A stretch of 64,000 nucleotides of DNA from contig CAWJSJ010000002.1 of NCBI GenBank assembly GCA_963845565.1, positions 448,001 through 512,000 on the forward strand, given 5' to 3'. Below the pieces are notes generated by a model, which saw nothing but the letters and a program-made list of their open reading frames with translations, did not search any database and had not been told where the DNA came from. This DNA comes from an uncultured Methylomirabilota bacterium. Its GTDB lineage: Bacteria > Methylomirabilota > Methylomirabilia > Methylomirabilales > 2-02-FULL-66-22. This document shows, in pieces, positions 33,006 to 59,290 of the stretch (its first letter is position 1; each line of letters begins with the position of its first letter). The position numbers and the translations under genes are program-made.

Positions 33006-34019
33006 ATGAAATTGCGTAACCGCACCATTGGTAGGATGTTGCTGCTTCTCGTACTGGCCCTGGGCGTGGTCGGCGCCGGCCTGCAGGAAGAAGCCGCGGC
33101 CGGCGCGGCCGTGCAGGTCGTGAAGTTCTCCTCCCCCGTGGCGCCCGATCACCCGAACAATATCGCCGCGCTGAAGTTCGCCGAGATCGTCAACAAGGAA
33201 TCGGGCGGGCGACTGAAGGTGGAGGTGTTCCCGGCGAACCAGCTCGGGAACGTCAAGGACGTGATCGAGAACGTCATGACGGGCAGCGTGCACATGTACA
33301 TGGGGGGCACGTCTGAGACGAGCCTGTTCCAGCCGGAATTCGCGGTCATGGACGCCCCCTACCTGTTCCGCGACTACGATCACCTGATGAAGGGCGCCAA
33401 GAGTGATGTGGTGAAAGAGATGGGCGCCAAGCTGGAGAAGAACCGTGGGGTCACGCTCCTGACCGCCGAGATCTACTACGGTGCCCGGCATCTCACCACC
33501 CGCAACAAGCCGATCAAGACCCCGGCCGACCTCAAGGGGATGCTGGTTCGGGCACCGGATCAGCCGATCTATTTGGAGGCCGTGCGCGCGATGGGCGCCA
33601 CACCGACGCCGGTCGCGTTTTCGGACCTGTACATGGCCCTAAAACAGGGTGTGGTCGATGGGCAGGAGAATCCCATTCCGACTATCTACACTTACAAGTA
33701 CTATGAGGCGCAGAAGTACCTGATGCTGACCGGCCACATGCTCCGCGTCAACGTCGTCGGCGCCGACGCATCCTGGTACAACAAGCTCTCCCCCGAGCTC
33801 AAAGGGATCATCCGCAAGGCCCTGGATGAGGCCGTCAAGCTGAACAATGAGCTGACGCTCAAGCAGGAAAAGGACATGTTGGAGGAGCTCAAGAAGCTCG
33901 GCATGGAGGTCGTGCAGCCCGACGTCGAGGCCTTCCGCGAGGCTGCCAAGGGCATTCCGGCCAAGTTCGAGGACAAGTGGGGCAAGGGAACCTTCGACCG
34001 GCTCAAAGCGGCGAAGTAG
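33006..34019 (+). CDS. dctP: TRAP transporter substrate-binding protein
   Basis: Signal peptide, FPANQLG, DAPYLF, DLKGMLVRAP, VDGQENP. Confidence 0.93.
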   Translation: MKLRNRTIGRMLLLLVLALGVVGAGLQEEAAAGAAVQVVKFSSPVAPDHPNNIAALKFAEIVNKESGGRLKVEVFPANQLGNVKDVIENVMTGSVHMYMGGTSETSLFQPEFAVMDAPYLFRDYDHLMKGAKSDVVKEMGAKLEKNRGVTLLTAEIYYGARHLTTRNKPIKTPADLKGMLVRAPDQPIYLEAVRAMGATPTPVAFSDLYMALKQGVVDGQENPIPTIYTYKYYEAQKYLMLTGHMLRVNVVGADASWYNKLSPELKGIIRKALDEAVKLNNELTLKQEKDMLEELKKLGMEVVQPDVEAFREAAKGIPAKFEDKWGKGTFDRLKAAK

Positions 34020-34044
34020 GGCGTTTCCCGACGGATTCACTCGG

Positions 34045-34080
34045 CCGCGGGACGGGAGATGGCTCCCGCCCCGCGGTTTT
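34045..34080 (+). terminator. Hairpin plus T-tract between dctP and dctQ
   Basis: CCGCGGGACGGGAG-ATGG-CTCCCGCCCCGCGG-TTTT. Confidence 0.55.
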
Positions 34081-34106
34081 CCGGCTCAGGCCGGCAGGGA
34101 CCCGAC

Positions 34107-34580
34107 GTGAAAAACATCTTGGATGCCACCGACCGGGCGACCGACGTCCTCTGCCTCATCCTCATGAGCGTCGGCTTCGTGATCACCTTTTTCCACATCA
34201 TCGGGCGATACATCCTCAAGGCGCCGATTTTCTACTCCGAGGAGCTGGCTCGCTACTGCTTCATTTGGGCGTGCATGCTCGGGGCGTCGGTCGTCAATCG
34301 AATGGACGAGCACACCAGCGTCAACTACTTCACCACGTTCCTGCCGAAGCGTGCCCAGGGATGGTTGTATATCGGCCGCCAGATTGCCATCCTGCTCCTA
34401 CTGGCGGCGCTGATCTATTACGGCGTCGCCCTCTCGATTAAGATGAACACGGTCCACTCGGCGGCGCTGGACATCTCCTGGTCATACATCTACATGGCGC
34501 TTCCGGTCGGCTCGCTGCTCTTGATCCTCACGACACTCAGGCTCATCGCCGCCAAGGGGCGGGAACTCAAAACGCTGTAA
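34107..34580 (+). CDS. dctQ: TRAP small permease
   Basis: GTG start; RY...SEELARYCFIW...EHTSV; four TM segments. Confidence 0.88.
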   Translation: MKNILDATDRATDVLCLILMSVGFVITFFHIIGRYILKAPIFYSEELARYCFIWACMLGASVVNRMDEHTSVNYFTTFLPKRAQGWLYIGRQIAILLLLAALIYYGVALSIKMNTVHSAALDISWSYIYMALPVGSLLLILTTLRLIAAKGRELKTL

Positions 34581-34593
34581 GAGGGATCTCGCC

Positions 34594-35865
34594 ATGCTGT
34601 TTCTCATCGGAGGATTCCTGCTGTTGGTCGTCCTGGGATTCCCGATCGTGTTTTCGCTCGCCATCACCTCGCTGCTCTATCTGGCCGTGTTCGACATTCC
34701 GGTCATCACCATGGCCCAGAAGATGATCTCCGGCATCGACACGTACGCCCTGCTGGCGGTGCCGTTCTTCATCCTGGCCGGCAATCTGATGAACACGGGG
34801 GGCGTGACCCGGCGGCTCTTCCGTTTCGCCTCGGCCATGGTCGGCCACATCCCGGGCGGCCTGGGGCACGCCAACGTCCTGGCAAGCATGATCTTCGCCG
34901 GCATGTCGGGCGCGGCCATCGCCGACGCGGGCGGCCTGGGAACCATCGAGATCAAGGCCATGCGCGACGAAGGCTTCGACATCGGCTTCTCGGCTGCGGT
35001 CACGGCCGCGTCATCGACAATCGGTCCGATCATTCCGCCCAGCATTCCCATGGTCATCTACGCCTCGATCGCCAGCGTGTCGGTCGGCAAGCTCTTCCTT
35101 GCCGGTGCCGTGCCGGGTATCCTGATGGGCTTGGCGCTCATGATCATGATCTACTTCGTGGCCAAGAAGCGGAGTTATCCGGTACACGCCGCATTCAGCG
35201 TCAAGGAGGCCGTGTTCTCCTTCGTCGACGGTTTCCTGCCGCTGCTCACCCCGGTGATCATCCTGGGCGGCATCCTAGGCGGCGTATTCAGCCCGACTGA
35301 GGCGGCCATCGTGGCTTCGACCTGGGCGCTTGTCCTTGGCATGCTGGTGTACAGGGAGATCAAGTTCCGGGACCTCATCCCCGTTGTCATGGACACCATC
35401 AAGACGACCAGCATGGTGGTCTACATCATCTCGGCCGCCGCCATCTTCGGCTGGCTGCTCGGCCGCGAGCAAGTCCCCCAGAGTGTGGCCCAACTGCTCT
35501 TCTCGATCTCAAAAGACCCCAATGTCATCTTACTTATCATTATCATCTTCCTGCTGATCATCGGCTGTGTCATGGAGACCACGGCGGCACTGATTTTGCT
35601 CACGCCCATCCTGGTTCCGCCCGTGATCCAACTCGGCATCGATCCGGTCCACTTCGGCCTGGTGATGGTCCTCGCTCTGATGATCGGCCTCCTGACCCCG
35701 CCGGTGGGGGTAGTGCTGTATATTACCTCGAGCATCGCCAAGATCTCTTTCGAGGAGATGTCGCGCGTGACCGCGCCGTATCTGATCCCCCTCGTGATCG
35801 TGCTGCTCATCTCGGCCTTTATCCCGGCCGTGACGATGACTCTGCCGAATCTCTTGATCCGGTAA
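34594..35865 (+). CDS. dctM: TRAP large permease
   Basis: LLAVPFFILAG, FAGMSGAAIAD, IIPPSIP, PTEA, IDPVHFG, TPPVG. Confidence 0.94.
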   Translation: MLFLIGGFLLLVVLGFPIVFSLAITSLLYLAVFDIPVITMAQKMISGIDTYALLAVPFFILAGNLMNTGGVTRRLFRFASAMVGHIPGGLGHANVLASMIFAGMSGAAIADAGGLGTIEIKAMRDEGFDIGFSAAVTAASSTIGPIIPPSIPMVIYASIASVSVGKLFLAGAVPGILMGLALMIMIYFVAKKRSYPVHAAFSVKEAVFSFVDGFLPLLTPVIILGGILGGVFSPTEAAIVASTWALVLGMLVYREIKFRDLIPVVMDTIKTTSMVVYIISAAAIFGWLLGREQVPQSVAQLLFSISKDPNVILLIIIIFLLIIGCVMETTAALILLTPILVPPVIQLGIDPVHFGLVMVLALMIGLLTPPVGVVLYITSSIAKISFEEMSRVTAPYLIPLVIVLLISAFIPAVTMTLPNLLIR

Positions 35866-36131: not shown

Positions 36132-37190
36132 ATGAACAGTCGCGAGCGTTACACGCGGGCGATCACCTTCTCCGGACCGGACCGGGTCCCCGTCATGCAT
36201 CGCACGATCCCGGGCGCCTTCCGCCGCCACGGCGGAAGGCTGGAGGCCTTGTACGAGCGGTATCCCAGCGATGTGCTCCTCTCTCCGTCCACGCGTGCCT
36301 GGTTCGCCTTCAAGCGCGGCGTCGTGGAGTCAAGCGGAGCGCTCAAGGGCGTGACCGATGAGTGGGGCTGCGTCTGGGACAGCCTGAACGACGACTACCT
36401 GGGGCAGGTATTCGGTCACCCGTTGGACGACTGGGAGAAGTGGACCGGCTTCAAGTCGCCGGAACCCACGGTGGGCATCGCGGGCGTCCATGAGATGGTG
36501 GAGGCGGTGAAGGCGGACAGGCACCAACACTATTGCCTGATCGAGGTCGGCACCCTGTGGCACCTGACCAACTGGCTGCGCGGTTTCGAGAACTCGCTCG
36601 TGGATGTGGTCGAGGACCGGCCCGAGATGTACGAGCTCCGCGACCGGATCACCGATTTTCTGCTGAAGCGGGTCGAGATCCTGCTGCGCCATCGGGAGCA
36701 TATCGACGGCATCCTGGTGAACGACGACTGGGGAACCCAGGAGACCCTGATGATCCGCCCCGAGTACTGGCGGAAGGTGTACAAACCCGCGTACGCGAAG
36801 ATCGTGGCGGCCATCAAGAGCGGTGGGTGCTTTGCCCACCTCCATTCGGACGGCGTCACGGATGCGATCATGGACGACCTCATCGAGATCGGCTTTGACG
36901 AACTGAATCCACAGATGTCCTGCATGGACGTCGAATCAGTGGGGCGCCGCTTCGGCGGGCGCGTCTGCTTCCGGGCGGACATGGACCGGCAGTATGTGCT
37001 GCCGTTCGGAACGCCTGCCGACGTCTCTGCCTTGGTGGAGCAACTCGCGACCGCCTTTGGCTCCAAACGGGGCGGCTACATCGGCTACGGCCAGATCAAC
37101 ACCGACGTACCCATCGAGAATGCCGAGGCCATGTTGGCGGCGTTTGCAGGCATCCGGTTCCCGGCGGGAGGCGCGCCGGCCTCGAATTAG
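36132..37190 (+). CDS. Uroporphyrinogen decarboxylase/MtaA-CmuA superfamily protein (putative corrinoid methyltransferase)
   Basis: MNSRER...PDRVP, DEWG, LRGFEN, DDWGTQ, HSDG, LPFGTP, VPIEN. Confidence 0.85.
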   Translation: MNSRERYTRAITFSGPDRVPVMHRTIPGAFRRHGGRLEALYERYPSDVLLSPSTRAWFAFKRGVVESSGALKGVTDEWGCVWDSLNDDYLGQVFGHPLDDWEKWTGFKSPEPTVGIAGVHEMVEAVKADRHQHYCLIEVGTLWHLTNWLRGFENSLVDVVEDRPEMYELRDRITDFLLKRVEILLRHREHIDGILVNDDWGTQETLMIRPEYWRKVYKPAYAKIVAAIKSGGCFAHLHSDGVTDAIMDDLIEIGFDELNPQMSCMDVESVGRRFGGRVCFRADMDRQYVLPFGTPADVSALVEQLATAFGSKRGGYIGYGQINTDVPIENAEAMLAAFAGIRFPAGGAPASN

Positions 37191-37339: not shown

Positions 37340-38464
37340 ATGACCAACCGTGAGCGTATCCTCGCCGTCCTCGACAAGAAGAGCCCGGACCGTGTTCCTT
37401 GGATCGCCCGGCTGGACCTGTGGTACCACGCGCGCCTCGCCGAGGGGAACCTGCCGACCCGGTTTCGGGGGATGAATCTCGTTGAGGTTGGACGCGCGCT
37501 TCGCACGGGCAACCCCGCCCGAGACGGCAAGATCTTCAACGTCCGCTACGAGGGCCTGGAGGTCCGCCAAGAGCGGGCGCCCGGCGTGGCGCGCCAGCGC
37601 TTCATCACGCCGCATGGGGAGGTCACCTTCGGGCGCATCCTCAGCGAGACAGTGTCTGGGACGACGGATCAAGGCCTGCCGCTGGAGCACCCGATCCATT
37701 CGGTAGAGGACTACAAGGTCCTGGAGTACATCGCCGAGCACACCTACTACGACCCCTGCTACAACGACTACCTGGCCTACGAGGCCGCGGTGGGAGACGA
37801 GGGATACCCCATGGTCTCGTGCGGGGACGTCCCGTTCCATTACTTCCTCCTGCACCTCGCCGGGTACAATCAGGCCTATTTCGAGATGGTGGATCATGCC
37901 GAGGAATTCGAGCACCTCATCGCCCTGATGGAGCAGGTCGACCGGGAGCGGCTGTGGCCCGTGGTCGCTGACTCGCCGGCGCGCCTCATCTTGCACGGGG
38001 TCCACTTCGACTCGCAAATGACGCCACCCCACATGTTCCGCAAGTACATGACCCCGTACTACAAGGACTTCAGCGCGTTGCTCCATGCGCGGGGGAAATC
38101 GCTGGTCTGGCACGCGGACGATGACTCCAAGGACATCCTGGCCGAGGTCAAGGACGCCGGTTTCGACATGTCCGAGTGCTTCTGCACGGCGCCCATGGTC
38201 GAGGTCACGCTGGAAGAAGCGCGAGCCGCCTGGAAAGGCGACGTCGCCATCTTCGGCGGCGTACCCTCCATCATCTTGGAGCCCACGTTCCCCGAAGTGG
38301 AGTTCGAGGAATACATGCGCGGCGTGTTCCGGACCATTGCGCCGGGTGACGCGTTCATCCTCGGCGTGGCGGATAACGTGATGCCGACCTCGATCATCGA
38401 GCGAGTGGAGCGGATTTCTGACCTCGTGGAACGACACGCAGCGTACCCGATCCAACCATACTGA
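37340..38464 (+). CDS. URO-D/MtaA superfamily protein (divergent)
   Basis: MTNRERILAVL..PDRVPW, FRKYMTPYY, HADD, IFGGVPS, FILGVADNV. Confidence 0.8.
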   Translation: MTNRERILAVLDKKSPDRVPWIARLDLWYHARLAEGNLPTRFRGMNLVEVGRALRTGNPARDGKIFNVRYEGLEVRQERAPGVARQRFITPHGEVTFGRILSETVSGTTDQGLPLEHPIHSVEDYKVLEYIAEHTYYDPCYNDYLAYEAAVGDEGYPMVSCGDVPFHYFLLHLAGYNQAYFEMVDHAEEFEHLIALMEQVDRERLWPVVADSPARLILHGVHFDSQMTPPHMFRKYMTPYYKDFSALLHARGKSLVWHADDDSKDILAEVKDAGFDMSECFCTAPMVEVTLEEARAAWKGDVAIFGGVPSIILEPTFPEVEFEEYMRGVFRTIAPGDAFILGVADNVMPTSIIERVERISDLVERHAAYPIQPY

Positions 38465-38535: not shown

Positions 38536-39171
38536 ATGGCCGACTACGATGGATTGAAGCAAGCCGTGATCAGCGGGAAGGTGGCCCAGGTCAAGGAGCT
38601 GACCCAGAAGGCCCTCGACGAAGGCCGGAATTGCCAGGAGGTGCTGGACCAGGGCCTGATCCCGGCCATGGATATCGTGGGCGAGAAGTTCTCCTGCCAC
38701 GAGTTCTACATCCCCGAGATGCTGATCGCCGCCCGGGCCATGCAGGCCGGCATCGGTCTCCTGAAGCCCCTCCTCGCCGCCCAGGGCGGGAAGCCCCGCG
38801 GCAAGGTGGTCATCGGGACCGTGAAGGGGGACCTCCACGACATCGGCAAGAACCTGGTCGGCCTCATGCTCCAGGGCAGCGGCTTCGAGGTGGTGGATCT
38901 CGGCGCCGACGTGAAGCCCGAGCGGTTCGTGGAGGCGGTCAAGACCAGCCAGCCCCACTTCGTGATGATGAGCGCGCTGCTCACCACCACCATGCTGTCC
39001 ATGAAGGACACCGTGGAAGCCCTCAAGGCCGCCAACCTGCGCACCGCGGTCAAGGTGGCCGTGGGCGGCGCCCCGGTGACCCAGCGCTTCTGCGACGAGA
39101 TCGGGGCCGACTTCTATGCCGCCAACGCCACCGGCGCCGTCACCAAGGCGAAGGAGCTGCTGCCGGTCTAG
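38536..39171 (+). CDS. Corrinoid (B12-binding) protein, MtaC/MetH cap plus cobalamin-binding type
   Basis: Cap domain GLIPAMDIVG...PEMLIAARAM; GTVKGDLHDIGKNLV (DxHxxG), SALLTTTM, GGAPVT. Confidence 0.93.
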   Translation: MADYDGLKQAVISGKVAQVKELTQKALDEGRNCQEVLDQGLIPAMDIVGEKFSCHEFYIPEMLIAARAMQAGIGLLKPLLAAQGGKPRGKVVIGTVKGDLHDIGKNLVGLMLQGSGFEVVDLGADVKPERFVEAVKTSQPHFVMMSALLTTTMLSMKDTVEALKAANLRTAVKVAVGGAPVTQRFCDEIGADFYAANATGAVTKAKELLPV

Positions 39172-39367: not shown

Positions 39368-40429
39368 ATGATCGAACCGAATTTCGAGCGGTTCCGGACG
39401 ATGCTCCTGCGTCGCGGGGAGCCCGACCGGGTTCCCCTGGGTGATATCAGCGTCCACCCCATGCTGAAGGCCGGGGTGCTGGGCCGTCCGGTCCGCACCC
39501 CGGAGGACGAGGTCGCCTTCTGGGCCACGGCCGGTTTCGACTACGTCCCCATCGAGCAGGGGTTGCAGCTCACGGACGTGATCAAGCGGCAGTCCATGCA
39601 CGAGGTCGAGGCCCAGTACGCCGCGGATACCGCCGACACCCAGGTCCGCTCGTGGGCGACCGAAGGCAAGGGCCTGATCGCCACCCGCGCCGATCTCGAC
39701 GCGTTTCGCTGGCCCGACCCCGATGCCCTCGACTACGGCGCCTTCGAGCGCCTCGCGCCCCTCCTCCCGCCGAAGATGAAGGTCTTTGCTGTGGTGGGGA
39801 AGGTCTTCACCTGCGTGTCGTGGTTGATGGGCCTGGAGGGCCTGAGCTTCGCCCTCGCCGACGATCCCGAGCTGGTCGCCACGATCTGCGAACGAGTGGG
39901 ACGGTTTCAGCACCGGGTCGTCGAGACCCTCTTGCGCTACGACACGGTCGGCGCCCTCTGGCACGCCGACGACATCGCCTTCAAGACCCAACTCCTGGTG
40001 AGTCCTCGGCTCCTCCGAAGCCACGTGTTCCCTTGGTACACGGAAATGAACCGGATGGCGCATGCCAAGGGCGTGCCGGTGGTCTATCACAGCGATGGCG
40101 CGCTCCAGGAAGTGGTGGAGGACATCATTGGCTGCGGCTTCGACGGCCTGAACCCCATCGAGCCGCCGGCCATGGACATCACCGCCGTCAAGCGGCAATT
40201 CGGGAAGCGAATCGCCATCATCGGCAACATCGACCTCGGCTACACGTTGACGCGCGGCACCCCCGCCGAGGTCCGGGCCGAGGTCCGCCAGCGCATCCGC
40301 GACCTCGCCCCGGGCGGCGGCTATGCCGTGTCGTCCAGCAACTCGGTCCCGGAGTACGTCCCGCTGGCAAACTTCAACGCCATGCGCGAGGCAACGTTCG
40401 AATTCGGGCGGTATCCGATCACGGCGTAA
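39368..40429 (+). CDS. URO-D/MtaA superfamily protein
   Basis: PNFERF...EPDRVP, WPDP, LMGLE, ADDIAFK, HSDG, IGNID, GTPAEV, APGGGY, SNSV. Confidence 0.85.
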   Translation: MIEPNFERFRTMLLRRGEPDRVPLGDISVHPMLKAGVLGRPVRTPEDEVAFWATAGFDYVPIEQGLQLTDVIKRQSMHEVEAQYAADTADTQVRSWATEGKGLIATRADLDAFRWPDPDALDYGAFERLAPLLPPKMKVFAVVGKVFTCVSWLMGLEGLSFALADDPELVATICERVGRFQHRVVETLLRYDTVGALWHADDIAFKTQLLVSPRLLRSHVFPWYTEMNRMAHAKGVPVVYHSDGALQEVVEDIIGCGFDGLNPIEPPAMDITAVKRQFGKRIAIIGNIDLGYTLTRGTPAEVRAEVRQRIRDLAPGGGYAVSSSNSVPEYVPLANFNAMREATFEFGRYPITA

Positions 40430-40464: not shown

Positions 40465-41466
40465 ATGAGCAGATCGCGGCTGGTATTCGTGGGAGTCCTT
40501 CTTGCGGTCGCCGTCGCAGCGGGCATGATTGCCGTCCCCGCCCCTGCCCCGGCCGCCGAATTCGTCATCAAGCTCGGGCACGTGCTACCCACCAACGAGC
40601 CGATCCATCAGGCGAACGAGCGCATGGCGCAGCGGGTCAAGGAGAAGACCAAGGGCCGAGTCGAGATCCAGGTCTTTCCCGCGTCCCAGATCGGCTCTAA
40701 CCGGGACACCTACGAACAGGCGCGCATGGGCGCCCCCGTGATCTGTCACATCGACCCGGGCTATGCCGCCGAGCTGGGGGATCTCGACATCGCCATCATG
40801 AACGGGCCGTTCCTGTTCGAGAGCTGGGACCAGGCCAAGAAGGTCCTGTCCTCTCCGCTGGTCGGCGCGATGAACCAGAACCTCTTGAAGAATGGGAAGA
40901 TCCGGGTCCTCTCCTGGGGCTACTACTTCGGCCAGCGCCACATCATCAGCGACAAGGGGTATCCGACGCCGGCGGACATCAAGGGCAAGAAGGTCCGCGT
41001 CCCGCCAAACGTGATGTGGGTCGAGACCTTCAAGGCCATGGGTGCCGTCCCCACGCCGCTCCAGTGGGCCGAGGTCTATCAGGGGCTAGGCCAGGGCGTC
41101 GTGGATGCCGCCGAGGCGCCGCTTTCCACCCTGCTGGGGTCGAAGCTCCATGAAGTGAAGAAAGTGATCACCCTGACCGGCCACTTCAAGGCGGTTGTGG
41201 GCCTGGCCATCGGCGAACAGTATTTCCAGAGTCTCCCCAAGGACATCCAGCAACTCCTTATCGAGGAGGCCGAGGAGAACGGCCGCTGGGTGTCGCCCAT
41301 CACGATCCAGAAGGAAGACGAATTCAAGCAGGCCCTCGCCAAGGGCGGCGTGACGTTCGTCCAGGCCGATACCGAGGCCTATCGGAAAGCCACCCTCGCG
41401 ACCTACCAGGCGTTCCCCAAGTGGACCCCTGGGTTGTACGAAAAGGTCCAGGCGGCCATGAAGTAA
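40465..41466 (+). CDS. dctP: TRAP transporter substrate-binding protein
   Basis: Signal peptide, FPASQIG, DIKGKKVRVP, WAEVYQGL..GVVDAAE. Confidence 0.92.
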   Translation: MSRSRLVFVGVLLAVAVAAGMIAVPAPAPAAEFVIKLGHVLPTNEPIHQANERMAQRVKEKTKGRVEIQVFPASQIGSNRDTYEQARMGAPVICHIDPGYAAELGDLDIAIMNGPFLFESWDQAKKVLSSPLVGAMNQNLLKNGKIRVLSWGYYFGQRHIISDKGYPTPADIKGKKVRVPPNVMWVETFKAMGAVPTPLQWAEVYQGLGQGVVDAAEAPLSTLLGSKLHEVKKVITLTGHFKAVVGLAIGEQYFQSLPKDIQQLLIEEAEENGRWVSPITIQKEDEFKQALAKGGVTFVQADTEAYRKATLATYQAFPKWTPGLYEKVQAAMK

Positions 41467-41467
41467 G

Positions 41468-42037
41468 ATGGCGGCATCCTCAAGTCCCGCCCTTTCCCCC
41501 CAGCACCCCGGGTTTTCCCCGGGGTGCTGGGGGTTTCTTCCGCTGCTCTTCCACCGCTTCGAGGAGATTGTCGGCGGGGCCGCCTTCGTCGCCATGACAG
41601 TGATGGTGTTCGTCAACGTCGTCTGCCGTTATGTCTTCGATAGCCCCATCGCCGGCTCCGACGAACTCGCGACTCTTGCCTTCACCTGGGCCACGTTCCT
41701 GGGCGCGAGCCTCGGCATCAAACGACAGATCCACTTGGGGATCGAGTTCGTCACGCGGCTCTTTCCGCTGCGCCTCCAGGCGCTGTGCGGGGTCATCGTG
41801 TCGGTGCTGGTCGCGGTCTTTGCCATGCTCCTGCTGGTCTATAGCTGGCAGATCATGCGCAGCGCGCATTTGAAAGTCACGCCGGTCCTCCAGTGGCCGT
41901 ATACCATCGTGTATCTCGCGGTTCCCGTCGGCGCCCTGCTCATGCTCCTGCGGCTCGCGCCTGTCGTCCGGGCGCAGGTCCGGCTCCTGTCCGGGCGGGG
42001 CGAGCGCACATCGTCCGCGGAGGCGGTTCCGCTATGA
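41468..42037 (+). CDS. dctQ: TRAP small permease
   Basis: FEEIV...NVVCRY...SDELATLAFTW..FLGAS...HLGIE. Confidence 0.85.
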   Translation: MAASSSPALSPQHPGFSPGCWGFLPLLFHRFEEIVGGAAFVAMTVMVFVNVVCRYVFDSPIAGSDELATLAFTWATFLGASLGIKRQIHLGIEFVTRLFPLRLQALCGVIVSVLVAVFAMLLLVYSWQIMRSAHLKVTPVLQWPYTIVYLAVPVGALLMLLRLAPVVRAQVRLLSGRGERTSSAEAVPL

Positions 42038-50790: not shown

Positions 50791-52761
50791 TCCAGCTCCC
50801 TCCTCTCCTTCATGTCGAAGAGCTTGCGCTCCTGCTTGCTCGTTGATGCCGCAGCGCGTCGCGCTTCTTCTCGATGTGCTCCAGGATCTTCTCGGCGGCC
50901 TGCACCGGATCGGGCTCCCAGTCGAATCGCCCGCCGGTGATCCCCTCCATCTCCTCGCAGAGCAGCTTGGTCACGTTCTCGCTGCCCTCGACGTAGAGCG
51001 GATGGCCCAGCACGACGTACATGCCCGCTGGCGACGAAGTAGTGGCCGATGGCGACCGCCTTCTCGCTCATCCACTCCGGCGCCGCGCCCGCCACCGGCA
51101 GGTCGGAGAGGTCCTCGCCCAGCCCGCCTTCGCTGCAGCACGTTGGTGGCGGCCATGCAGGATGCGGCTGTTGTCCACGCAGGAGCCCATGTGCAGCACC
51201 GGCGGGATGCCCACCGCCTCGCAGACCTCGCGCAGCGAGGCGCCGGCCTTCTCCAGCGCCGCCTCCGGCACCAGCAGCCCCGCCTTGGCGCAGGCGATGG
51301 CCGCGCAGCCGGTCTGCAGCACCAGCACGTTGCGCTTGATCAGCTCCTCGGCCAGCCGCACGTGCGCGTCGTCCGCCATCACCTTCGGGTTGCTGCAGCC
51401 GACGATGCCCGCCACGCCGCGGATGCGGCCGTCGATGATGGCGTCGTTCAGCGGGCGGAAGGTGCTGCGGAAGCGCCCGCCCAGCATGTGGAAGATGGTC
51501 TCGTTGGAGAAGCCGGCCACCAGCTCCATCGACTCGCTGCGGGATGTGCACCCGCGCCCGGTCGCGGTTGCGCGAAGTTGTCGATGGCCGCGCGGATCAG
51601 GTCGCAGCGCGTGCTCGTAGCCGTGCTGCCACGTCGAAGGTGATCTGCTCGGCGTCGAAGGTCTGCGCGATCTCCGAGGTGCTCACCAGCTTGGTGTGGA
51701 AGCACTTGGCCACCTGCGGCCAAGCGACGGCATCACGCACTGCACGTCGACGATCATCATCTCGACCGCGCCGGTGAGGATGGCCAGCTCCTGCTGCAGG
51801 AAGTTGCCGGCGATCGGCAGGCCGTGGCGCATCAGCACTTCGTTCGCCGTGCAGCAGATGCCGGCGATGTTGATGCCCGCGGCGCCCTTCGACTTGCGCG
51901 TAGGCCAGCAGCTCCGGGTCGCTGCGAGGCCACCGCCAGCATCTCGGAGAGCGTCGGCTCGTGGCCGTGGACGATGATGTTGACCTTGTCCTCGGCCAGC
52001 ACGCCCAGGTTCACCCTGCTGCGGATCGGGCTTGGGCGTGCCGAACAGGATGTCGCGAGACCATGGTCGCGATCATCGAGCCGACCCAGCCGTCCGCCAG
52101 GCTGCACTTCAGCCCGCCCATGATCAGGTGGCGGTAGTCGTGGTCCACGCCCATGTGGGTGCGGTGCATCAGTTCGACGACCGCGGAGTCGATGCCCGTT
52201 CGGCTCGATCTCCAGCTTCTTCCAGAGCGCCTGCCGCTTCTCCGGCGCCAGCCTCAGCGTCGCGTTGGGCTCCTCGGACCAGGCGAACTGGCGCCATGAA
52301 GAAATCCGCCAGGTCGCCGGCGATCTCCAGGTCGCCGCGGCCGTCCGTCGCGATCTCGAAGAACCGCGCCGCCTCCCGCAGCCGGCGCGGATCGGTGATC
52401 TTGTACTCGCCGCCCTTGCCCTCGCGCCACCAGCTTCAGCGTCGCACCAGCATGCGCCCGTGGTCGGAGTGCGCCGCCGTCCCCGCCGCGATCTCGCGCA
52501 GCAGGTTGCGCGCGACGATGGTGTCGGCATCGGCGCCGCAGATGCCCGAGCTTGGCCTTGGGCGTGATGCGGCACGGCCCCATGTGGCACAGCCGGCAGC
52601 AGACGCCCGTCCGTGCCGAACTTGCACTGCGGCTGCTGGCTCTTGTAGCGGTCCCAGACCGTGGGGATCTCCTCGGCTCTGGCGATGTTGCACCATCTCG
52701 TTGATGGCCGGGTCGCGCGAGACCTGCCTTCACGACCGGGCTGTTCGAGCTCGGTTGACAT
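50787..52761 (-). CDS. cooS: Ni,Fe carbon monoxide dehydrogenase catalytic subunit; frameshifted
   Basis: QCKFG..GVCCRLCHMGPC (D and B clusters), AAHSDH, HGHEP, GICCTANE, DVQC, GCSN, TGCAA, GSCVD, EWMSEKA; all C-cluster ligands recognisable. Confidence 0.93.
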
Positions 52762-52773: not shown

Positions 52774-53552
52774 CTATCCGACCTGCGCTGTCGCGAATAG
52801 CCTCTCCATCAGCGCGTCCACGGCGCGCCGCGCCGGCGCGTCCTGCGGGATCGTCTGCACGCTCATCCCGCCGGCGTCCATCGCCGCGACGGCCGGGTCC
52901 AGCGGGATCGCCGCCAGCAGCGGCAGCCCGGTCGCCCCGACCTCCGCCGTCAAGCGCCGCCGGCAGGACGCCCTCCGGCACGCGGTTGACGATCAGCCCG
53001 CGCGTCCTCGCCGGCGAGTCCCACCTCATCGGCCAGCGTCGGAGATCCGTCGCGGCCGTGCGCACGCCGCGCACGCGTGCAGTCGGAGACGATCAGCAGG
53101 TAGTCGAGCGCAAGCAGCGTGCGGCGCGAGATGTGCTCCAGCCCGGCCTCGCTGTCGAGCACGATGTGCTTGTAGTTGCCGCGACAGCCGGTCGAGCACG
53201 TCGCGCAGCACGTTGTTGGCGAAGCAGTAGCAGCCCTGGCCCTCCGGGCGCCCCATCACGATCAGGTCGTAGCCGTGCCTGCTCCACCAGCGCCTCCTGC
53301 ACGCGCAGGTCCAGGAACTCCTGCTTGGCGATGCCCGGTCAGCCGCGCCGCGTCGCTCCGGGCACTCTCGCGGATGCCGCCGACGGTGGCCGCGTAGGAG
53401 ACGCCCAGCGCCTCGTGCAGGTTGGCGTTGGAGTCGGCGTCCACGGCCAGCACGGGCGCCTCGCCCCGCGCCACCAGCCAGTCGATGGCCAGCGCCGAGA
53501 GCGTCGTCTTGCCGACGCCGCCCTTGCCGGTCATCGCCATCGTGAATCCCAT
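52774..53552 (-). CDS. cooC: CooC/AcsF nickel-insertion ATPase; frameshifted
   Basis: TGKGGVGKT, VDADSNANL, MGRPEGQGCYC, DSEAGLEHISR. Confidence 0.9.
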
Positions 53553-53662: not shown

Positions 53663-54732
53663 TCAGGCCACTCCCAGCCGCGTCCGCAGGATCCGGCTCG
53701 TCTGGCCGAGCAGCTGGAAGACGCGCTCCGCGTCCGCGACCGGCAGCGAACCGGTGCCGCAGGAGGGCGTGATCACCGCCTGCCGCATGATCAGCTCGCG
53801 GCTCGAGCCCGGTGGCCTTGGCCAGGTTGTCCACCAGCCGCGTCGAACTTCGCCACCAGGCTCTCCGACCGTCTGCGCCTGGATCTTGGCGCTGTTGGTC
53901 GGCACGACGCCCCACGCCAGCGCCTTGCCGGCTTCGAGGTGGCGCTTCACCGCCTCCGGATACAGGGCGATGGTCTCGCCGTAGTCGAACGCGTCGAAGT
54001 TGACGATGATCCACGCCGGCGTCGATCAGGATCGACCACTCGGTGTTGCCGCAGCAGTGGACGCCCGGCCAGCGCGCCCTCGGCGTGCACGGCCTCGATC
54101 ACCTCGCCCAGCTTCGCCACCACGTCGTCGCGCGTGACGCTGACGTAGGTGGAGGAGCCGAAGGCCGACAGGATCGGCTCGTCGATGAAGCAGATGACGC
54201 CGCTCGGCGTACGGGCTGAACTTGCGGATCTGCCAGCGGCACTTCATCGCCAGCGCCTTGACCACCACGTCGACGAACTCCTCGTTGTAGTAGATGGCGC
54301 GCTTGTTCTCGTCGACGATGGTCAGCCCGAAGCTGATCGGCCCGGTGGTCTGCACCTTCACGAACGGGCGCTTGCCGCCCGGCCGCCTTCAGCGCCGCTT
54401 CCATCGCGTAGATGCCCTTGCGAGAACTCCGGCGTGATCGCGGAAGCAGTCGACGTTCTCGGCCAGGAACTTCTCGTAGAAGGTGGCCAGATCCATCGAA
54501 GTGTCGCCGGTGGTGTCGATGTACATGCGCTCCTTCTCGCGGTCGATCACCACGCGCGGCAGGCCCTCGGAGTACTGGATCTCCATCTGCTCGTTCAGCC
54601 CGCTGCGCCGGCAGCTGCGGCCAGATCGGGGCGTCGGGGATGTTGTCGAGGACGACGCGCACGGCGTCTTCGGCCTTGGCGTGCGGCAGGCTGCCGATAG
54701 CCGGTGGCCAGACATCGGGGCTGGAAACTCAT
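53663..54732 (-). CDS. Core (folate-independent) methionine synthase, MesB-like single-barrel MetE homolog; frameshifted
   Basis: GSLPH, PIWPQLP, KVQTTGPISF, FIDEP, VHCCGNTEW, AWGVVPT, ITPSCGTGS. Zn-type HxC...C ligands; no MetE N-terminal barrel. Confidence 0.75.
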
Positions 54733-55550
54733 GGGAGCGCTCCTTCTCTGATCCTCGAACCGTTGGGTCAGCATCCGCTGCATCGCGCGGAATGGGGCGA
54801 GCAGATCGTCCTGGCCCGCAGTCCACCAGCGATTGACCGTGCCGGTCGGCCTGCGCGATGCGCGGATCGAACGGGATCGCAGCCGAGCAGCTGCGTCGGC
54901 GCCGAATTCCTCGACCGATCCAGCGCGTGTCCTCCGCGATCGCCGTCGATTTGTTCAGCACGACCGCGAAGCGCCGGATGCCGAGCGCGGCGGCCATCTC
55001 GCGCACGCGGTGCGCCGTCTCGACGCTGCGCCGCCCCGGCTCCACCACCACCAGCATCAGGTCGACGCCCATGGCGGTGCCGCGCCCGAGGTGCTCGATG
55101 CCGGCCTCCATGTCCAGGATCACCACGTCGCTCGCGGCGCAGCACCAGGTGCGCGCACCAGAGCCTTCAGCAGCACGCTCTCCGGGACAGGCGCAGCCGC
55201 CCGCCGCGCGCTGCGCCGCGCCCGAGCACCAGCAGATCGACGTCCCGGCGTGGCGCGTGCCGTACTGCTCGGCGATGCCGCTCACGTCGGGGTTCAGCCT
55301 GAACATCTGCCCGAACTCGCTGCACCTTGGCCCCGGTGCGCTCCTCGATGAGCTGCCGCTCCTCGGAGATGGTGTGGATCGAGCGGCGCAGCTCTGCGGG
55401 CACGCCCAGCGCCGAGGCCAGGTTGGCATCCGGGTCGGCATCGATGGCCAGCACCCGGCGCCCCTCGGCCGCGAACAGCCGCGCCAGCGTCCCGGCCAGG
55501 GTGGACTTCCCCACCCCTCCCTTCCCCGTGATGGCCAGCTTCAGTCCCAC
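54729..55550 (-). CDS. cooC: CooC nickel-insertion ATPase (second copy); frameshifted
   Basis: KLAITGKGGVGKST, IDADPDANLA, FRLNPDVS, GGCACP, DMEAGIEHLGRGT. Confidence 0.9.
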
Positions 55551-55591
55551 CGTTCCCCCACAATCCCCGAATCGCCCAGTCGCCGACTCGC

Positions 55592-56509
55592 CTACTTCCC
55601 CCGCCGCCCGCGCACCACCCCCGCGATGGCCTTGATGTGCGCGGGCGTGCTGCCGCAGCAGGCCCCCACGATCCGTGCCCCGGCGTCCAGGATCGCCGGG
55701 AACGCGGCCGCCATGCCCTCGGGCGAGAGATCGTAGACCGTTTTGTCCCCGACGATCTTGGGGATGCCGGCGTTGGGGTAGGCCGCCAGGAAGCCGGGAG
55801 TCGCCGTTCGCATCTCCGCCAGGATGGCCGGTACGCGCCCCGGCCCCCCGTCGCCGCAATTGCAGCAGACGATGTCGGCGCCGGCCGCGACCAGCTGCCG
55901 GGCAGCCTCGGCGGGGCTGGTCCCCCACATGGTCCGGTCGGTGCCCTTGGCGGCGTTGTACTGGAAGGTCATGCTGCACATCACCGGCAGCCCGGTCGCC
56001 TCCTTGGCCGCCTTGATGGCCAGCACCGCCTCGTCCGGGATCATCATGGTCTCGATGGCGAACAGATCCACACCGCCCTCGGCCAACGCCACGGCCTGCT
56101 CGCGGAAGCTCTCGTAAAACAGCTCCGCCGGCGTGTCGCCCAGCGGCTCGAAGGTGTCGGGCAGGTGACCCGTCGGGCCGACGGAGCCCGCCACCAAGCC
56201 GCCCGCAGGGCAGACGGCCCGAGCCAGGCGCGCCCCCTTTTCATTCAGCTCCCGACAGCGCTCCGCCAATCCATAGGCCTTCAACTTGAGCTGGGTTCCC
56301 CCGAAGGTGTTGGTCTCGATCATGTCGCTGCCCGCCTCGAGGTAGGCGCGATGGACACCCTGGAGGACCTCCGGCCGCTCCGCGTTCCACAATTCCGGAC
56401 AGGCGCCGGGCGCCAGCCCCGCGGCGAACAGCATCGTTCCCATCGCCCCGTCGAAGACCAGCACCTCGGACTGCAGTCGCTCCAGCAAGCCCTTCCCCCG
56501 AGATTCCAT
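55592..56509 (-). CDS. Stand-alone homocysteine S-methyltransferase domain (MetH N-terminal-like)
   Basis: DGAMGT, ETNTFGG, GSVGPTG, IETM, CNCG, PNAG, GACCG Zn ligands; about 305 aa with no pterin or B12 domain. Confidence 0.9.
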   Translation of the reverse strand: MESRGKGLLERLQSEVLVFDGAMGTMLFAAGLAPGACPELWNAERPEVLQGVHRAYLEAGSDMIETNTFGGTQLKLKAYGLAERCRELNEKGARLARAVCPAGGLVAGSVGPTGHLPDTFEPLGDTPAELFYESFREQAVALAEGGVDLFAIETMMIPDEAVLAIKAAKEATGLPVMCSMTFQYNAAKGTDRTMWGTSPAEAARQLVAAGADIVCCNCGDGGPGRVPAILAEMRTATPGFLAAYPNAGIPKIVGDKTVYDLSPEGMAAAFPAILDAGARIVGACCGSTPAHIKAIAGVVRGRRGK

Positions 56510-56695
56510 GCCCACACACTCCTTCTCATGAGTAGGACGGGAAGACGATCGTTGTCGCAGGCGGTTGTCCCACCGGAAGCACATTATCCGGAGGCGGCCT
56601 GGTTTGGTATAGACGCGGATGGTCGAAAGATGGAACACTCTTGCTGTCATCCGAGCCATGGGGCGGGATTTTTCCACAATTTCGGGCATCGCGGC

Positions 56696-57922
56696 ATGAA
56701 ACATCGATCGTTGTTGCCACCGGGCACCCTCCGGCGGATCCGCGGAGAATACCGTCGGCGCTACGGGCTGGAGGCCCATCCGGTCTCCTGCGACGGCTCG
56801 GTCCTGAACGGACCCTCGTCCGCCGTCCGCAATCTGCCCCTTCTGAAGCGGGCCCGCGCCGACGCCCTGCAAGAGAGCGTGCGCTGGGGGGAGCCCTACT
56901 CGTTTTTCCTGACCCCCGGGATCGTCTCCTGGATCGTGCCGGGGGTGGACGGCGAGGTCGTGCACGGGGGCCTCGGCGGAGGCGAGGTGCGCTCCCACGA
57001 GGACCCGCAGGACCGCAGCGAGGCCGTCAATTATCTCCTGAGCGCGGGCGCGACTCGTCCCGCAGCCGAACGCTATGTGAGCGGCCTACCGATCTGGCCT
57101 CAGTCCCGCACACCTGAGGCGGAGGCCTGGCTGCTCGCGCGCCTCTACATTCTGACAGGCTGGAAGCCCACCCTTCTCGATCGCAATCGCGAGAACGCCC
57201 AGCAGCAAGGACAGATCGCCGAGGAGATCCACCGGCGCAAGACCGCCGATCCGGGCGCCTATCCGCTGGATCAGGAGCGGGAGCTCCTGGCCCTGATCCG
57301 GGTCGGCGATCGGGTTGGCGTGCGCCGCGGCCTGAACCGGCTGATCGCCCACGTCTTCGTCCATTCCACGCGAATCCCCCTGGTGCAGGCCCGCATGATC
57401 GAGCTGCTGGGGTACCTGGTGCGGGCCGCGGTGGAGGACAATCCCGCGCTCGATTCCCTGGTCGAGCGCCACATCCAGTGGATCGAGCGCGTGATCGCCG
57501 CCAAGGACTTCGAGGGCTCCTGCGCCGCCCTGCGCGAGGCGCTGGACGAGTTCATCGACCAGATCGGGCTCCAGGGGTTCAACCGGCACAACCGCCACGT
57601 CAGCCGGATCCTGGAATTCCTCTCGCAGAACTACACGCGCACGATCCGCCTGGACGAGGCCGCCGCGCGGGCCGGCCTGAGCCGGTTTCGCGTGGCCCAC
57701 CTGGTCAAGGAATGCACCGGGAAGACCATCCAGCAGCACATCAAGCGCCTGCGCATCCAGAAGGCGCGGACCTGGCTGGAAGAGACCGACAAGGACTTCG
57801 CCGACATCGCGCACGAATTGGGGTTCTCGGACCAGAGCCACTTCATCCGCCATTTCCGCGACGTGACGGGTCTGACGCCCGCCCGGTACCGGCGCACCGT
57901 CGCCCTCGGGAAGACCTCATGA
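56696..57922 (+). CDS. AraC family regulator with N-terminal PocR-like sensor domain
   Basis: N-terminal WGEPYSF...GIVSWIVP...GGLGGGEV; C-terminal double HTH LDEAAARAGLS...IAHELGFSDQSHFIRHFRDVTGLTPARYR; divergent from the CODH/ACS operon. Confidence 0.85.
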   Translation: MKHRSLLPPGTLRRIRGEYRRRYGLEAHPVSCDGSVLNGPSSAVRNLPLLKRARADALQESVRWGEPYSFFLTPGIVSWIVPGVDGEVVHGGLGGGEVRSHEDPQDRSEAVNYLLSAGATRPAAERYVSGLPIWPQSRTPEAEAWLLARLYILTGWKPTLLDRNRENAQQQGQIAEEIHRRKTADPGAYPLDQERELLALIRVGDRVGVRRGLNRLIAHVFVHSTRIPLVQARMIELLGYLVRAAVEDNPALDSLVERHIQWIERVIAAKDFEGSCAALREALDEFIDQIGLQGFNRHNRHVSRILEFLSQNYTRTIRLDEAAARAGLSRFRVAHLVKECTGKTIQQHIKRLRIQKARTWLEETDKDFADIAHELGFSDQSHFIRHFRDVTGLTPARYRRTVALGKTS

Positions 57923-58518
57923 GCCTGCAGGATGCGCAGCGCGAGGCCGTGCGCCGCGCCGCCGCCGATCTTGTCGGGGTCGAGATGGCTTCGCGCTGCC
58001 GGCTGCTCGGGCTGCCCCAGCCGCAGGCGGGCGCGGTTCGCTTCCGGGCCTTCGGCCTGAACCTGGTCCTGCGCCTCCCAGGTTTCGATCTCACGCTGGC
58101 CGAGGGGAGCGCGCCCGCCCGGCTCGGAGATCAACTGCTTGTCTTGCACTACCTGCGGTGCGCCGTGTCGCCGGCGCCGACCGGCGAGCCGATCAACTTC
58201 CGAGATTTGCCGGGCGGCCGGGTCTACTGGCAGCCGTTCCTGTCCCGCAGCATCGCGCCGCTGCTGCGCGCGATCGGCAACGATCTGGAGCGGCTCACGC
58301 GCCACCTGGACCGCTTCGACTGGCAGCCGGTGGCGGCGGGGGACCTGGGGGCCCGTATTCACGCCCTCGGCAGGATCGAGGCCACGCTGGTCTATCGAAA
58401 AGGCGACGAGGAGTTCGGGCCGACCGCAGAGTTGCTCTTCGACGCCTGCATCAGGCGCGTCTACACGACAGAGGACGTGGCGTACCTCGCGGGCCGAATC
58501 TGCCTCGGCTTGCTATGA
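57919..58518 (+). CDS. DUF3786-like protein
   Basis: LLVLHYL, INFRDLPGGRVY..PF, GDEEF..AELLFD..I...TEDVA; ATGA overlap with the regulator. Confidence 0.75.
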   Translation: MSLQDAQREAVRRAAADLVGVEMASRCRLLGLPQPQAGAVRFRAFGLNLVLRLPGFDLTLAEGSAPARLGDQLLVLHYLRCAVSPAPTGEPINFRDLPGGRVYWQPFLSRSIAPLLRAIGNDLERLTRHLDRFDWQPVAAGDLGARIHALGRIEATLVYRKGDEEFGPTAELLFDACIRRVYTTEDVAYLAGRICLGLL

Positions 58519-58519
58519 T

Positions 58520-58642
58520 GGGTCGCTGAAAAAGGCCCATCTGTGTCGTTGGCACGCCTCGGCACTCGCTGCGGCGTACCTCCAGTACGCCTCGCTCGGC
58601 CTGTGGCGCGCCGCCTTGCATCTGGACCTTTTTGAGCAACCC
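58520..58642. mobile_element. MITE/REP-like element, copy 2
   Basis: GGGTCGCTGAAAAAGGCCCATCTG...GCCGCCTTGCATCTGGACCTTTTTGAGCAACCC, homologous to 39172-39311. Confidence 0.7.
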
Positions 58643-58690
58643 AAGCGTACGCAGATTCGTCAGCAGACTGCAGGGATGAGAGGAGAGTCG

Positions 58691-59290
58691 ATGATGCCGC
58701 GCTGCCCGGGTCAGGATCTGCGCTTCTGGACCCCCAAAGATATCTTCGACGTCGGCTGTCCGCACTGCGGCAGGACGATCGAATTCTGGAAGGACGACCC
58801 CAGCCGCCGCTGCCCCGGCTGCGGCCGCGAGGCGCGCAATCCGCGTCTGGATCTGGGTTGCGCCGAATGGTGCAAGTACGCCGCGGAGTGCCTCGGGCAG
58901 GGCGCGGTGGGCTCAGCCGCGGTGGCGCCGGTGATCGACCGGCTGGAGCTGCTCCTCGACGGCTACTGCGCGACCGATCCGCAGGCCGGGCCCCGCGCCC
59001 GCCGCTGCCTGGGCCGCGCCCAGCAGATCATCCTGGCGGACCAGGTCGACCCGTGCGTCCTGCAGACCGCGGCACTCCTGGTGGGAGCGCTGGCCGAGCG
59101 GGGCGCCCCCGGCCCCGAAGAATCCACAGCCATCCAGGCCATGCTGGAACGGGCCGGCATCGCCGCGGAGGTCGCGCGCCGGATCCGCGACCTGGTGCAG
59201 GCGGTACGCTCCAGCAGGGCCCTCCCCGGCCCGGAATATCGCGCCCTGGCGAAACTCTGGAGCCTGGAGGGGCCCTCCCCCGGCGCCTAA
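58691..59290 (+). CDS. Hypothetical protein with N-terminal Cys-rich (zinc-ribbon/Fe-S-like) domain
   Basis: CPGQD...CPHCG...EFWKDD...RCPGCG...NPRLDLGCAEWCKYAAECLG; AGGAG RBS. Confidence 0.7.
   Translation: MMPRCPGQDLRFWTPKDIFDVGCPHCGRTIEFWKDDPSRRCPGCGREARNPRLDLGCAEWCKYAAECLGQGAVGSAAVAPVIDRLELLLDGYCATDPQAGPRARRCLGRAQQIILADQVDPCVLQTAALLVGALAERGAPGPEESTAIQAMLERAGIAAEVARRIRDLVQAVRSSRALPGPEYRALAKLWSLEGPSPGA

Follow-up and report, generated by a model that had tools for sequence, protein, structure and literature searches.

A CODH/ACS operon with a MesB-like protein at the place of AcsE in a probable member of the Methylomirabilales, and a possible methionine relay to acetyl-CoA

Gene content of the locus

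The window analysed here is a 64,000-nucleotide stretch (G000:C2:448001-512000) of the genome of an uncultured bacterium, labelled G000 (5.36 Mb in 6 contigs, 98.7% complete, 6.4% contaminated), in which a plus-strand cassette of URO-D family, corrinoid protein and TRAP transporter genes converges on a minus-strand operon for CODH/ACS (carbon monoxide dehydrogenase together with acetyl-CoA synthase) that includes two homocysteine-directed enzymes. The host is probably a member of the Methylomirabilales (NC10); the named record most identical to the AcsB query of the same-genus genome G012 (L074, 88%) is labelled Methylomirabilales, the 16S gene has the look of an NC10 one, and haem-copper oxidase genes are present in G000. 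An earlier, sequence-only reading of this DNA had proposed that the two blocks are joined and that methyl groups stripped from an imported substrate pass via corrinoids directly to ACS, without tetrahydrofolate (THF). The gene content and order that it listed were borne out by Pfam and by tblastn with the intact operon of G012, which served as the reference, its proteins standing in for the frameshifted ones of the window. The features are listed below.

33006..35865, plus strand: TRAP transporter 1 (dctP 33006-34019, dctQ 34059-34580, dctM 34594-35865; Pfam)
36132..37190, plus strand: URO-D family protein 1, H-S-D zinc site, PF01208 match; putative O-demethylase (methyltransferase 1, MT1)
37340..38464, plus strand: URO-D family protein 2, H-A-D site (Pfam and motif)
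38536..39171, plus strand: stand-alone MtaC/MtgC-like corrinoid protein, B12-binding Pfam match, DxHxxG at residue 99
39368..40429, plus strand: URO-D family protein 3, H-S-D site; aligns to MtaA (4ay7) with both zinc cysteines replaced
40468..43323, plus strand: TRAP transporter 2 (dctP 40468-41466, dctQ 41468-42037, dctM 42034-43323; Pfam)
43378..43489, plus strand: 112-nt direct repeat, left copy, which corresponds to the 3' end of a dctM gene
43808..45690, minus strand: RACo/AcsV corrinoid activase, the sole RACo of G000; ends approximate (assembly frameshifts)
45701..47047, minus strand: acsC, large subunit of the corrinoid iron-sulfur protein (CFeSP), with Fe-S motif
47063..50790, minus strand: acsB::acsD, ACS, an Ala/Pro-rich linker and the CFeSP small subunit in a predicted fusion; A-cluster cysteine motifs present
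50793..52761, minus strand: cooS, Ni-CO dehydrogenase, C-cluster ligand motifs present
52780..53550, minus strand: cooC/acsF-like ATPase, inner copy (Pfam and tblastn)
53666..54732, minus strand: mesB-like core methionine synthase at the place of acsE, with an H-x-C...D...C zinc set and the homocysteine-binding Asp motif
54815..55550, minus strand: cooC/acsF-like ATPase, outer copy (Pfam and tblastn)
55592..56509, minus strand: stand-alone homocysteine methyltransferase (HMT; the N-terminal module of MetH), S-methyl_trans Pfam match
56604..56649, no strand assigned: conserved 46-nt element upstream of the AraC gene, common to G012 and G020; candidate regulator site or promoter
56696..57922, plus strand: AraC-family regulator, divergent from the operon, with a homolog at the same position in G012
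57919..58518, plus strand: DUF3786 protein, which adjoins the operon in 8 of 80 loci
58694..59290, plus strand: protein with a Cys-rich N-terminus and no Pfam or NCBIfam match
59404..60109, plus strand: remains of the 3' part of a dctM gene, including the right repeat copy (59997-60108); in the acs-less G013 the URO-D cassette ends in a longer ortholog

By tblastn with the G012 operon, the minus-strand order is HMT, cooC, mesB, cooC, cooS, acsB, acsD, acsC and RACo, and the Pfam matches on that strand are S-methyl_trans, CooC-like ATPases, Prismane (CooS), CdhC/ACS, CdhD (twice) and RACo. In G012, acsB and acsD form a single open reading frame of 1213 aa; the corresponding fusion in the window is inferred solely from colinearity with G012, the frameshifts hiding the reading frame. 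The G012 orthologs of CooS, AcsB, AcsC and AcsD, with which the window is colinear, pass TIGR01702, NF040764, NF003195 and NF003376. Homologs of the protein at 58694-59290 adjoin the operon in 19 of 80 loci, and this protein is a candidate accessory factor of this acs operon type.

Integrity of the operon

Compared with G012, the acs block contains 101 one-base insertions and 8 one-base deletions, and about 120 frame-shifting gaps overall. Taken at face value, these gaps would make the block a decaying or silent island that lies beside the cassette by chance, an explanation to which the flanking repeats, the GC content and the patchy distribution described below also lend themselves. It is nevertheless very improbable. 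The gaps are nearly all one-base insertions, and the extra letters are missing, at the places listed, from contigs of up to four independent public runs; the clean flanks are matched without differences by contigs of two of the four. A pattern search recovered the ACS, CODH, CFeSP, MesB and HMT motifs intact in the window, and the operon itself is intact in G012 and across many phyla. Because the other runs' contigs lack the insertions and the catalytic motifs are intact, the frameshifts are assembly errors and not decay; pseudogenisation is thereby rejected and the operon is treated as intact. Among the contig pieces listed, none bridges the junction at 43.3-43.8 kb, so that the junction stands on this assembly alone, and a sigma-70/terminator scan of the junction found nothing. 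Contig pieces from two RNA-labelled runs lie on both blocks, mostly those of relatives; contigs are no proof of transcription, DNA may be present in these runs, and the pieces were not used.

Assembly noise extends beyond the acs block: in a second error-rich patch at 26528-30361, the alignment to G004 opens 42 gaps over 3858 nt, and two genes that are intact in G004, one for a tripartite tricarboxylate-type transporter and one dehydrogenase-like, are broken. Elsewhere in the window, a NiCo riboswitch match (14946-15039, minus strand; RF02683, 42.9 bits, gathering threshold 37) lies at the 5' end of an apparent cation-efflux (CDF-like) transporter gene at 13874-14956, which fits nickel/cobalt handling. 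A 78-nt intergenic repeat occurs at 39178-39255 and 58525-58602 and has 148 genome-wide blastn matches, in the manner of REP/MITE elements, and a fused MFS-like/spermidine-synthase-like protein is encoded just past the right repeat (60106-61923, minus strand).

MesB in place of AcsE across genomes

To place the operon among its relatives, genomes of GTDB were scanned with the AcsB::AcsD protein of G012, and the best 80 of at least 578 confirmed stretches were taken as loci; the counts given here describe this clade only. In 44 of them the fetched sequence extends 1.5 kb or more to either side, and these are termed fully bracketed. Genome-wide searches covered 50 of the 80 loci, chosen for longer contigs, plus G000, G002, G012 and G042, and were tallied by hand; 49 of the genomes are of MesB type, G002 being included by likeness as its contig stops before mesB. 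Among the 80 loci, 61 encode MesB only, 6 AcsE only and none both, with neither found in 13 that are mostly cut by contig ends. The exclusion is the same in the bracketed loci (39 MesB-type, 5 AcsE-type, none with both). Of the 39 bracketed MesB loci, 30 also encode HMT, which takes one of three positions, and the AcsB::AcsD fusion is present in most MesB loci and none of the 6 AcsE loci. The arrangement cooC-mesB-cooC-cooS-acsB::acsD-acsC-RACo, often with HMT added, is a widespread AcsE-less operon type. Its record labels include Acidobacteriota, Planctomycetota, Verrucomicrobiota, Lentisphaerota, Kiritimatiellota, Bacteroidota, Armatimonadota, Synergistota, Bacillota, Thermodesulfobacteriota, KSB1, SAR324 and others. 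One locus (L104), labelled Akkermansia muciniphila, has the full operon with an HMT much like that of L107; the label may be wrong.

In an alignment of 24 operon MesB-like proteins, S14, D181, H222, C224, D243 and C320 are invariant, and the zinc ligands are spaced +2/+21/+98, compared with +2/+21/+97 in Dehalococcoides mccartyi MesB. The Asp motif was recovered in the window's own copy and the Ser motif was not, by pattern search in this error-rich stretch. A structural model of the G012 protein (pLDDT 92) matches MetE, MesD, MtaA and UROD at TM 0.51-0.65, that is, the MetE C-terminal/URO-D barrel with no folate domain; sequence searches of the PDB with MesB returned only spurious repeat-protein matches. 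AcsC and AcsD are encoded in the same operon, and the MesB-like protein is most likely the partner of CFeSP. The gene at the place of AcsE is thus predicted to specify a homocysteine enzyme, which speaks against the direct transfer from corrinoid protein to CFeSP envisaged in the sequence-only reading.

Folate metabolism without a known link to corrinoid proteins

Genome-wide searches extend the lack of AcsE to all of G000: PF00809 finds only FolP and full-length MetH, and with a profile built from seven AcsE proteins the sole match is MetH, the pterin domain of which is 30-35% identical to AcsE. MtrH was not found in G000, G002 or G012, and Fhs, MetE, Pta and acetate kinase were not found in G000. 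The window itself, as had been claimed, has no match to AcsE, MetF, FolD or the MetH pterin domain. Extended to the whole genome, the folate-free picture stood for AcsE, Fhs and MtrH and fell for MetF, FolD, GlyA and full MetH, which are encoded elsewhere in G000, as are MtaB and ADP-forming-synthetase-like genes. Of the components of a complete bacterial Wood-Ljungdahl pathway, CooS, AcsB, AcsC, AcsD, FolD and MetF were found, and AcsE and Fhs were not. Folate one-carbon metabolism is therefore present in a cell with no known enzyme that couples folate to CFeSP or to the corrinoid proteins. Since neither AcsE nor MtrH nor a stand-alone pterin methyltransferase was found in G000, CFeSP is unable to exchange methyl groups with THF by a known enzyme, and that part of the earlier proposal is upheld; the same searches leave the demethylase system with no stand-alone pterin-binding or MtrH protein as a THF-methylating methyltransferase 2 (MT2).

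In another explanation there is a cryptic folate link: MetH's pterin domain, or some protein not recognised as such, would act in AcsE's role and make the operon part of an ordinary if incomplete Wood-Ljungdahl route. The presence of MetH, MetF, FolD and GlyA and the resemblance of the MetH domain to AcsE would allow this, but 48 of the 49 MesB-type genomes have no AcsE-level match (the exception, G285, owes its match to a second acs cluster with cooC-acsD-acsE), seven carriers have no such pterin domain at all and G000 has no Fhs. It is hardly probable. An MtrH-type MT2 as the hidden link was rejected on the searches of G000, G002 and G012 reported above.

Two modules, probably inherited separately

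Were the two blocks one functional unit, as the sequence-only reading had supposed, conserved linkage would be expected among relatives; it was not found. Of 21 genomes of the genus, 3 encode AcsB; for the phylum the figure is 4 of 251, the fourth having a canonical acsE cluster. URO-D/corrinoid cassettes are present in six acs-less relatives (G004, G006, G013, G016, G018 and G019). The G012 cassette is on a contig other than that of the operon, and the 40 kb fetched around it contain no acs gene; in G002 it is flanked by other genes while acs is on other contigs. Conserved linkage of the URO-D/TRAP cassette to acs is thus rejected. In the window, the 112-nt repeats, 98% identical and with only two copies in the genome, bracket the acs block, which has a GC content of 69% against 64% for the cassette and whose closest non-genus relatives among the fetched loci are mostly acidobacterial (up to 84%). 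On the preferred reading, the acs block was inserted where the cassette ends, or came to lie there by rearrangement. The cassette is genus-wide and older, and the acs operon patchily distributed and probably acquired; the window holds two independent, probably separately inherited modules side by side.

Some association between the blocks did stand. The G012 operon is less than 10 kb from a corrinoid gene of the same subfamily, there with two MttB genes, and a homolog of the AraC regulator heads a URO-D/corrinoid operon in the acs-less G020. The AraC element is not found before the window's cassette, however: a profile built from three upstream elements, and weak for that reason, scores 60 at its own site and at most 20.7 elsewhere in G000, with values below 0 upstream of dctP1, URO-D1, the second HMT gene and the second corrinoid gene. 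One of the MttB genes of G012 (L012:19556-19655, on G012:C25) contains a PYLIS_3 match of 45.4 bits and is open without an amber stop.

Within the cassette, URO-D1 has orthologs at 77-88% in relatives and scores under the MtaA and CmuA cut-offs; among 20 genus relatives, 12 encode an ortholog of URO-D2 and 11 one of the corrinoid protein (76-91%). TRAP 2 follows URO-D3 in G002 and G004 also, and TRAP 1 does not adjoin the cassette in the relatives examined; the nearest solved relatives of TRAP 1 by PDB sequence search are sialic-acid binders and other DctP proteins, matches that do not fix its substrate. By a published zinc-site rule, as given in the accessible text of its source, H-x-D sites are O-type (PMC10418091). 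A URO-D-fold MT1 with an O-type site is thus accompanied by a corrinoid protein, as in an O-demethylase system, and the URO-D proteins look like O-methyl, not thiol, transferases.

These sites bear on a further explanation, in which a URO-D protein of the cassette, or direct protein contact, passes the corrinoid methyl group to CFeSP/ACS without a thiol. Such a route would sidestep the energy well of a thioether; in each of the two genus genomes whose contigs are long, a corrinoid protein is encoded no more than 10 kb from the operon; and the only RACo of G000 sits in the acs operon. It is nonetheless improbable, given that the cassette is independent of acs, that the window's URO-D proteins match beside only 3 of 80 loci and that it is MesB, not URO-D, whose presence follows the loss of AcsE. 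The O-type zinc sites, and the lack in URO-D3 of both MtaA cysteines, fit O-demethylases; moreover, URO-D genes abound with or without acs (23 matches, about 22 genes, in G000 and 11-19 in acs-less relatives). The earlier suggestion that the URO-D proteins move methyl groups directly to CFeSP accordingly found no support.

G000 encodes two stand-alone corrinoid proteins. The second lies at G000:C2:1265469-1274918 with a URO-D and a DUF1638 gene, next to genes read from their translations as succinyl-CoA-synthetase-like and 2-oxoacid:ferredoxin oxidoreductase-like. An MtaB-like methanol methyltransferase (G000:C6:18828-20198, 45% identical to that of L108) is distant from both corrinoid genes.

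Origin of the homocysteine methyltransferase

The window's HMT is 87% identical to a second copy at G000:C2:67559-68467, and stand-alone HMTs are encoded in 14 of 20 genus relatives. In a 60-row tree it groups with the genus's own HMTs (100/95), beside the second genomic copy, and apart from 37 operon HMTs of other phyla; three of the 37 form a further long-branched group of unsure placement. Because it groups with genus HMTs and not with those of other acs operons, the window HMT derives from the host's corrinoid-linked HMTs and was recruited separately. No HMT relative was found on viral contigs. In acs-less relatives, HMT is directly beside a corrinoid gene (G011, G015, G017 and G019), and for this reason it is most likely the enzyme that unloads corrinoid proteins. 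The acs-less G015 also has a cluster (L234:7012-15505, on G015:C39) of HMT, GcvT-like dimethylglycine dehydrogenase, MtmB-family, corrinoid, MetH activation-like domain and RACo genes; with no folate MT2 seen in it, this cluster reads as a methylamine-to-methionine module.

The link between this acs operon type and stand-alone corrinoid proteins, which lends the earlier proposal some support, recurs across the sample: 42 of 49 genomes encode such a protein, and 31 of these 42 lack a stand-alone pterin methyltransferase. In a control on the family around G255, in which 4 of 301 genomes have MesB, a corrinoid protein is encoded in 4 of 4 genomes with MesB and 58 of 297 without it, although the four are kin, perhaps one clade, and not independent. 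Donor modules beside the operon include two MttB genes and a corrinoid gene in G012, corrinoid and MtaB genes in 5 Acidobacteria loci, MtaB in L108 and URO-D in L090, L104 and L115. Rnf genes adjoin the operon in L109 and L114 (two Synergistaceae), and other neighbours are cobamide salvage and carbohydrate genes.

Direction of methyl flow

The two-module architecture is held with considerable confidence. Module A would comprise TRAP import, URO-D O-demethylases and the corrinoid protein, and in this genus such corrinoid proteins would unload onto homocysteine via the stand-alone HMT and not onto folate. Module B would be the CODH/ACS operon, with MesB coupling CFeSP to homocysteine/methionine. 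Homocysteine/methionine, free or held by MesB, would bridge the two corrinoid systems in THF's stead. The sequences show the content of the locus, the lack of AcsE and MtrH, the exchange of AcsE for MesB, that the two blocks are independent and where the HMT came from; the direction of flow is the weak step.

That homocysteine/methionine replaces folate as methyl carrier with net flow toward acetyl-CoA is favoured tentatively, at somewhat less than even confidence. Under anoxia a substrate methyl group would pass to the corrinoid protein, via HMT to methionine, via MesB in reverse to CFeSP and on to ACS, with CooS supplying CO and acetyl-CoA as product. Such methyl-reducing acetogenesis would need no folate branch and would serve the cell as an outlet for electrons and methyl groups. 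The conversion of methionine, CO2, H2 and CoA to acetyl-CoA and homocysteine is near equilibrium (about -5 to -11 kJ/mol), methyl-CFeSP lying well above both ends. On these values, direction would follow the ferredoxin potential through CooS, toward acetyl-CoA in fermenting cells and toward methionine where CO is drained.

Flow in the opposite sense is a substantial possibility too, though it also falls short of an even chance. [quoted passage not shown] This is the published proposal for Dehalococcoides, which lacks AcsE and MetF, to go by the accessible text of its sources (PMC7005905, PMC7857596). It is the only direction measured for MesB, and the zinc and homocysteine residues fit the MesB pattern. 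HMT-corrinoid pairs exist without acs, and an uphill intermediate would matter less to a small biosynthetic flux. Cleavage would, however, add reduced ferredoxin for a fermenter, and a supply role leaves unexplained the repeated recruitment of HMT beside a gene with the same product.

Flow toward acetyl-CoA is favoured for several reasons. Most carriers need no further methionine synthase: a MetH-length pterin-domain frame is present in 34 of 49 genomes (G261 adds a frameshifted one), MetF in 41 and both in 32, G000 among them. HMT was recruited separately at least twice. Donor modules recur beside the operon. Signs of a methionine regulon were not seen: among 115 neighbour proteins scanned, from 156 candidates, there were no methionine/S-adenosylmethionine (SAM)-cycle families, and in 10 sources there was no SAM riboswitch at the gathering threshold. 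Retention of CooS, and the presence in G000 of MtaB and ADP-forming-synthetase-like genes, were also counted for the relay. As an exit for surplus methionine, methionine gamma-lyase was sought in 5 genomes and nothing scored over the TIGR01328 cut-off. In Acetobacterium woodii, according to the accessible text of PMC10284823, methyl groups yield only acetate when H2 or CO is supplied.

Several points weigh against flow toward acetyl-CoA. Methyl transfer from a thioether to a corrinoid is uphill by about 25-30 kJ/mol and would limit flux. To the best of our knowledge, no reverse MesB activity has been reported. The sole characterised MesB was assayed for transfer from methylcobalamin to homocysteine, and the accessible text of that study does not mention 'reverse' (PMC7005905). 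Most members of the genus have the corrinoid/URO-D/HMT set but no acs (AcsB is missing from 18 of 21), which implies that methionine is a sufficient end point for it. Co-regulation of both blocks by AraC was rejected, the three-sequence profile giving no shared motif, and G000 lacks acetate kinase and Pta. Among bracketed MesB loci, 9 of 39 have no HMT in the fetched stretch; among the 49 genomes, 5 have no stand-alone corrinoid protein, with two more having fragments only, and 7 have neither MetH nor a stand-alone pterin domain (MetE was not searched there). In these seven, MesB/HMT may be the methionine synthases.

A broader version of the relay, in which homocysteine/methionine serves as a catabolic one-carbon carrier and heterotrophs of at least 12 phyla make acetate from methyl groups and CO2/CO without a folate branch, is more doubtful. 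HMT would load methyl groups from methanol, methylamines and methyl ethers, and reversed MesB would methylate ACS-tethered CFeSP; many of the carriers would be oxygen-respiring soil and wetland bacteria.

Relation to known systems and implications

An AcsE-less ACS with MesB has already been proposed for Dehalococcoides, in the direction opposite to the relay. The incomplete Wood-Ljungdahl pathway of Dehalococcoides mccartyi, as described in the accessible parts of two papers (PMC7005905; PMC7857596), is alike in having AcsB, AcsC and AcsD without AcsE and a MesB-type zinc enzyme proposed to take the CFeSP methyl group; the same parts report mesB clustered with acsC/acsD in some methanogens. 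Compared with it, the window's operon holds CooS, two CooC proteins, the predicted AcsB::AcsD fusion and a second homocysteine methyltransferase, and its host, besides retaining MetH and MetF, possesses demethylase systems of the corrinoid kind. Methylotrophic acetogenesis in Acetobacterium woodii (PMC10284823, accessible text) shares MT1-like enzymes, a corrinoid protein, RACo, CODH/ACS and CFeSP, whereas the window's host has no THF-directed MT2 of pterin-binding or MtrH type and no AcsE, Fhs or Pta/Ack, and has homocysteine enzymes at both positions usual for folate enzymes.

URO-D/corrinoid clusters without a folate methylase have also been described. Type 1 mlp clusters, in the accessible text of PMC10418091, share several URO-D-superfamily genes, a corrinoid protein, transporters and no folate methylase nearby; there, however, the zinc sites of the Mlps are His-Cys-Cys and their identity to MtaA/MtbA is about 30%, in contrast to the H-x-D sites and weak MtaA similarity of the window's URO-D proteins. 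[quoted passage not shown] Split MetH consists of stand-alone homocysteine, pterin and B12 modules. The window's HMT is likewise a stand-alone homocysteine module needing a separate corrinoid protein, but G000 has no stand-alone pterin module and its corrinoid proteins sit with URO-D demethylase genes. The term split MetH occurs in the accessible text of PMC7857596, and a termite-gut genome with CODH/ACS missing acsE was read as anabolic in the accessible part of a 2026 preprint (10.64898/2026.10.06.756956). No paper was found on an operon of CooS, AcsB::AcsD, MesB and HMT or on a methionine relay, most of the subscription literature being outside the search. New here are the Methylomirabilales example, the independence of the cassette, an HMT that originated in the host, and counts across whole genomes backed by a single control.

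In genome surveys, CODH/ACS that lacks acsE and fhs is scored either as a Wood-Ljungdahl pathway that is broken or as a methionine side route. Uncultured bacteria of soil, peat, sediment and gut commonly carry this operon type, and most of them already encode MetH and MetF. If flow is toward methionine, the operon would be the clearest test case for the MesB-CFeSP proposal. If it is toward acetyl-CoA, a methionine synthase family would run backwards in energy metabolism, of which we know of no earlier case, and in anoxic soils methanol, methyl ethers, CO and electrons would drain into a sink that has gone unrecognised and that competes with methanogens.

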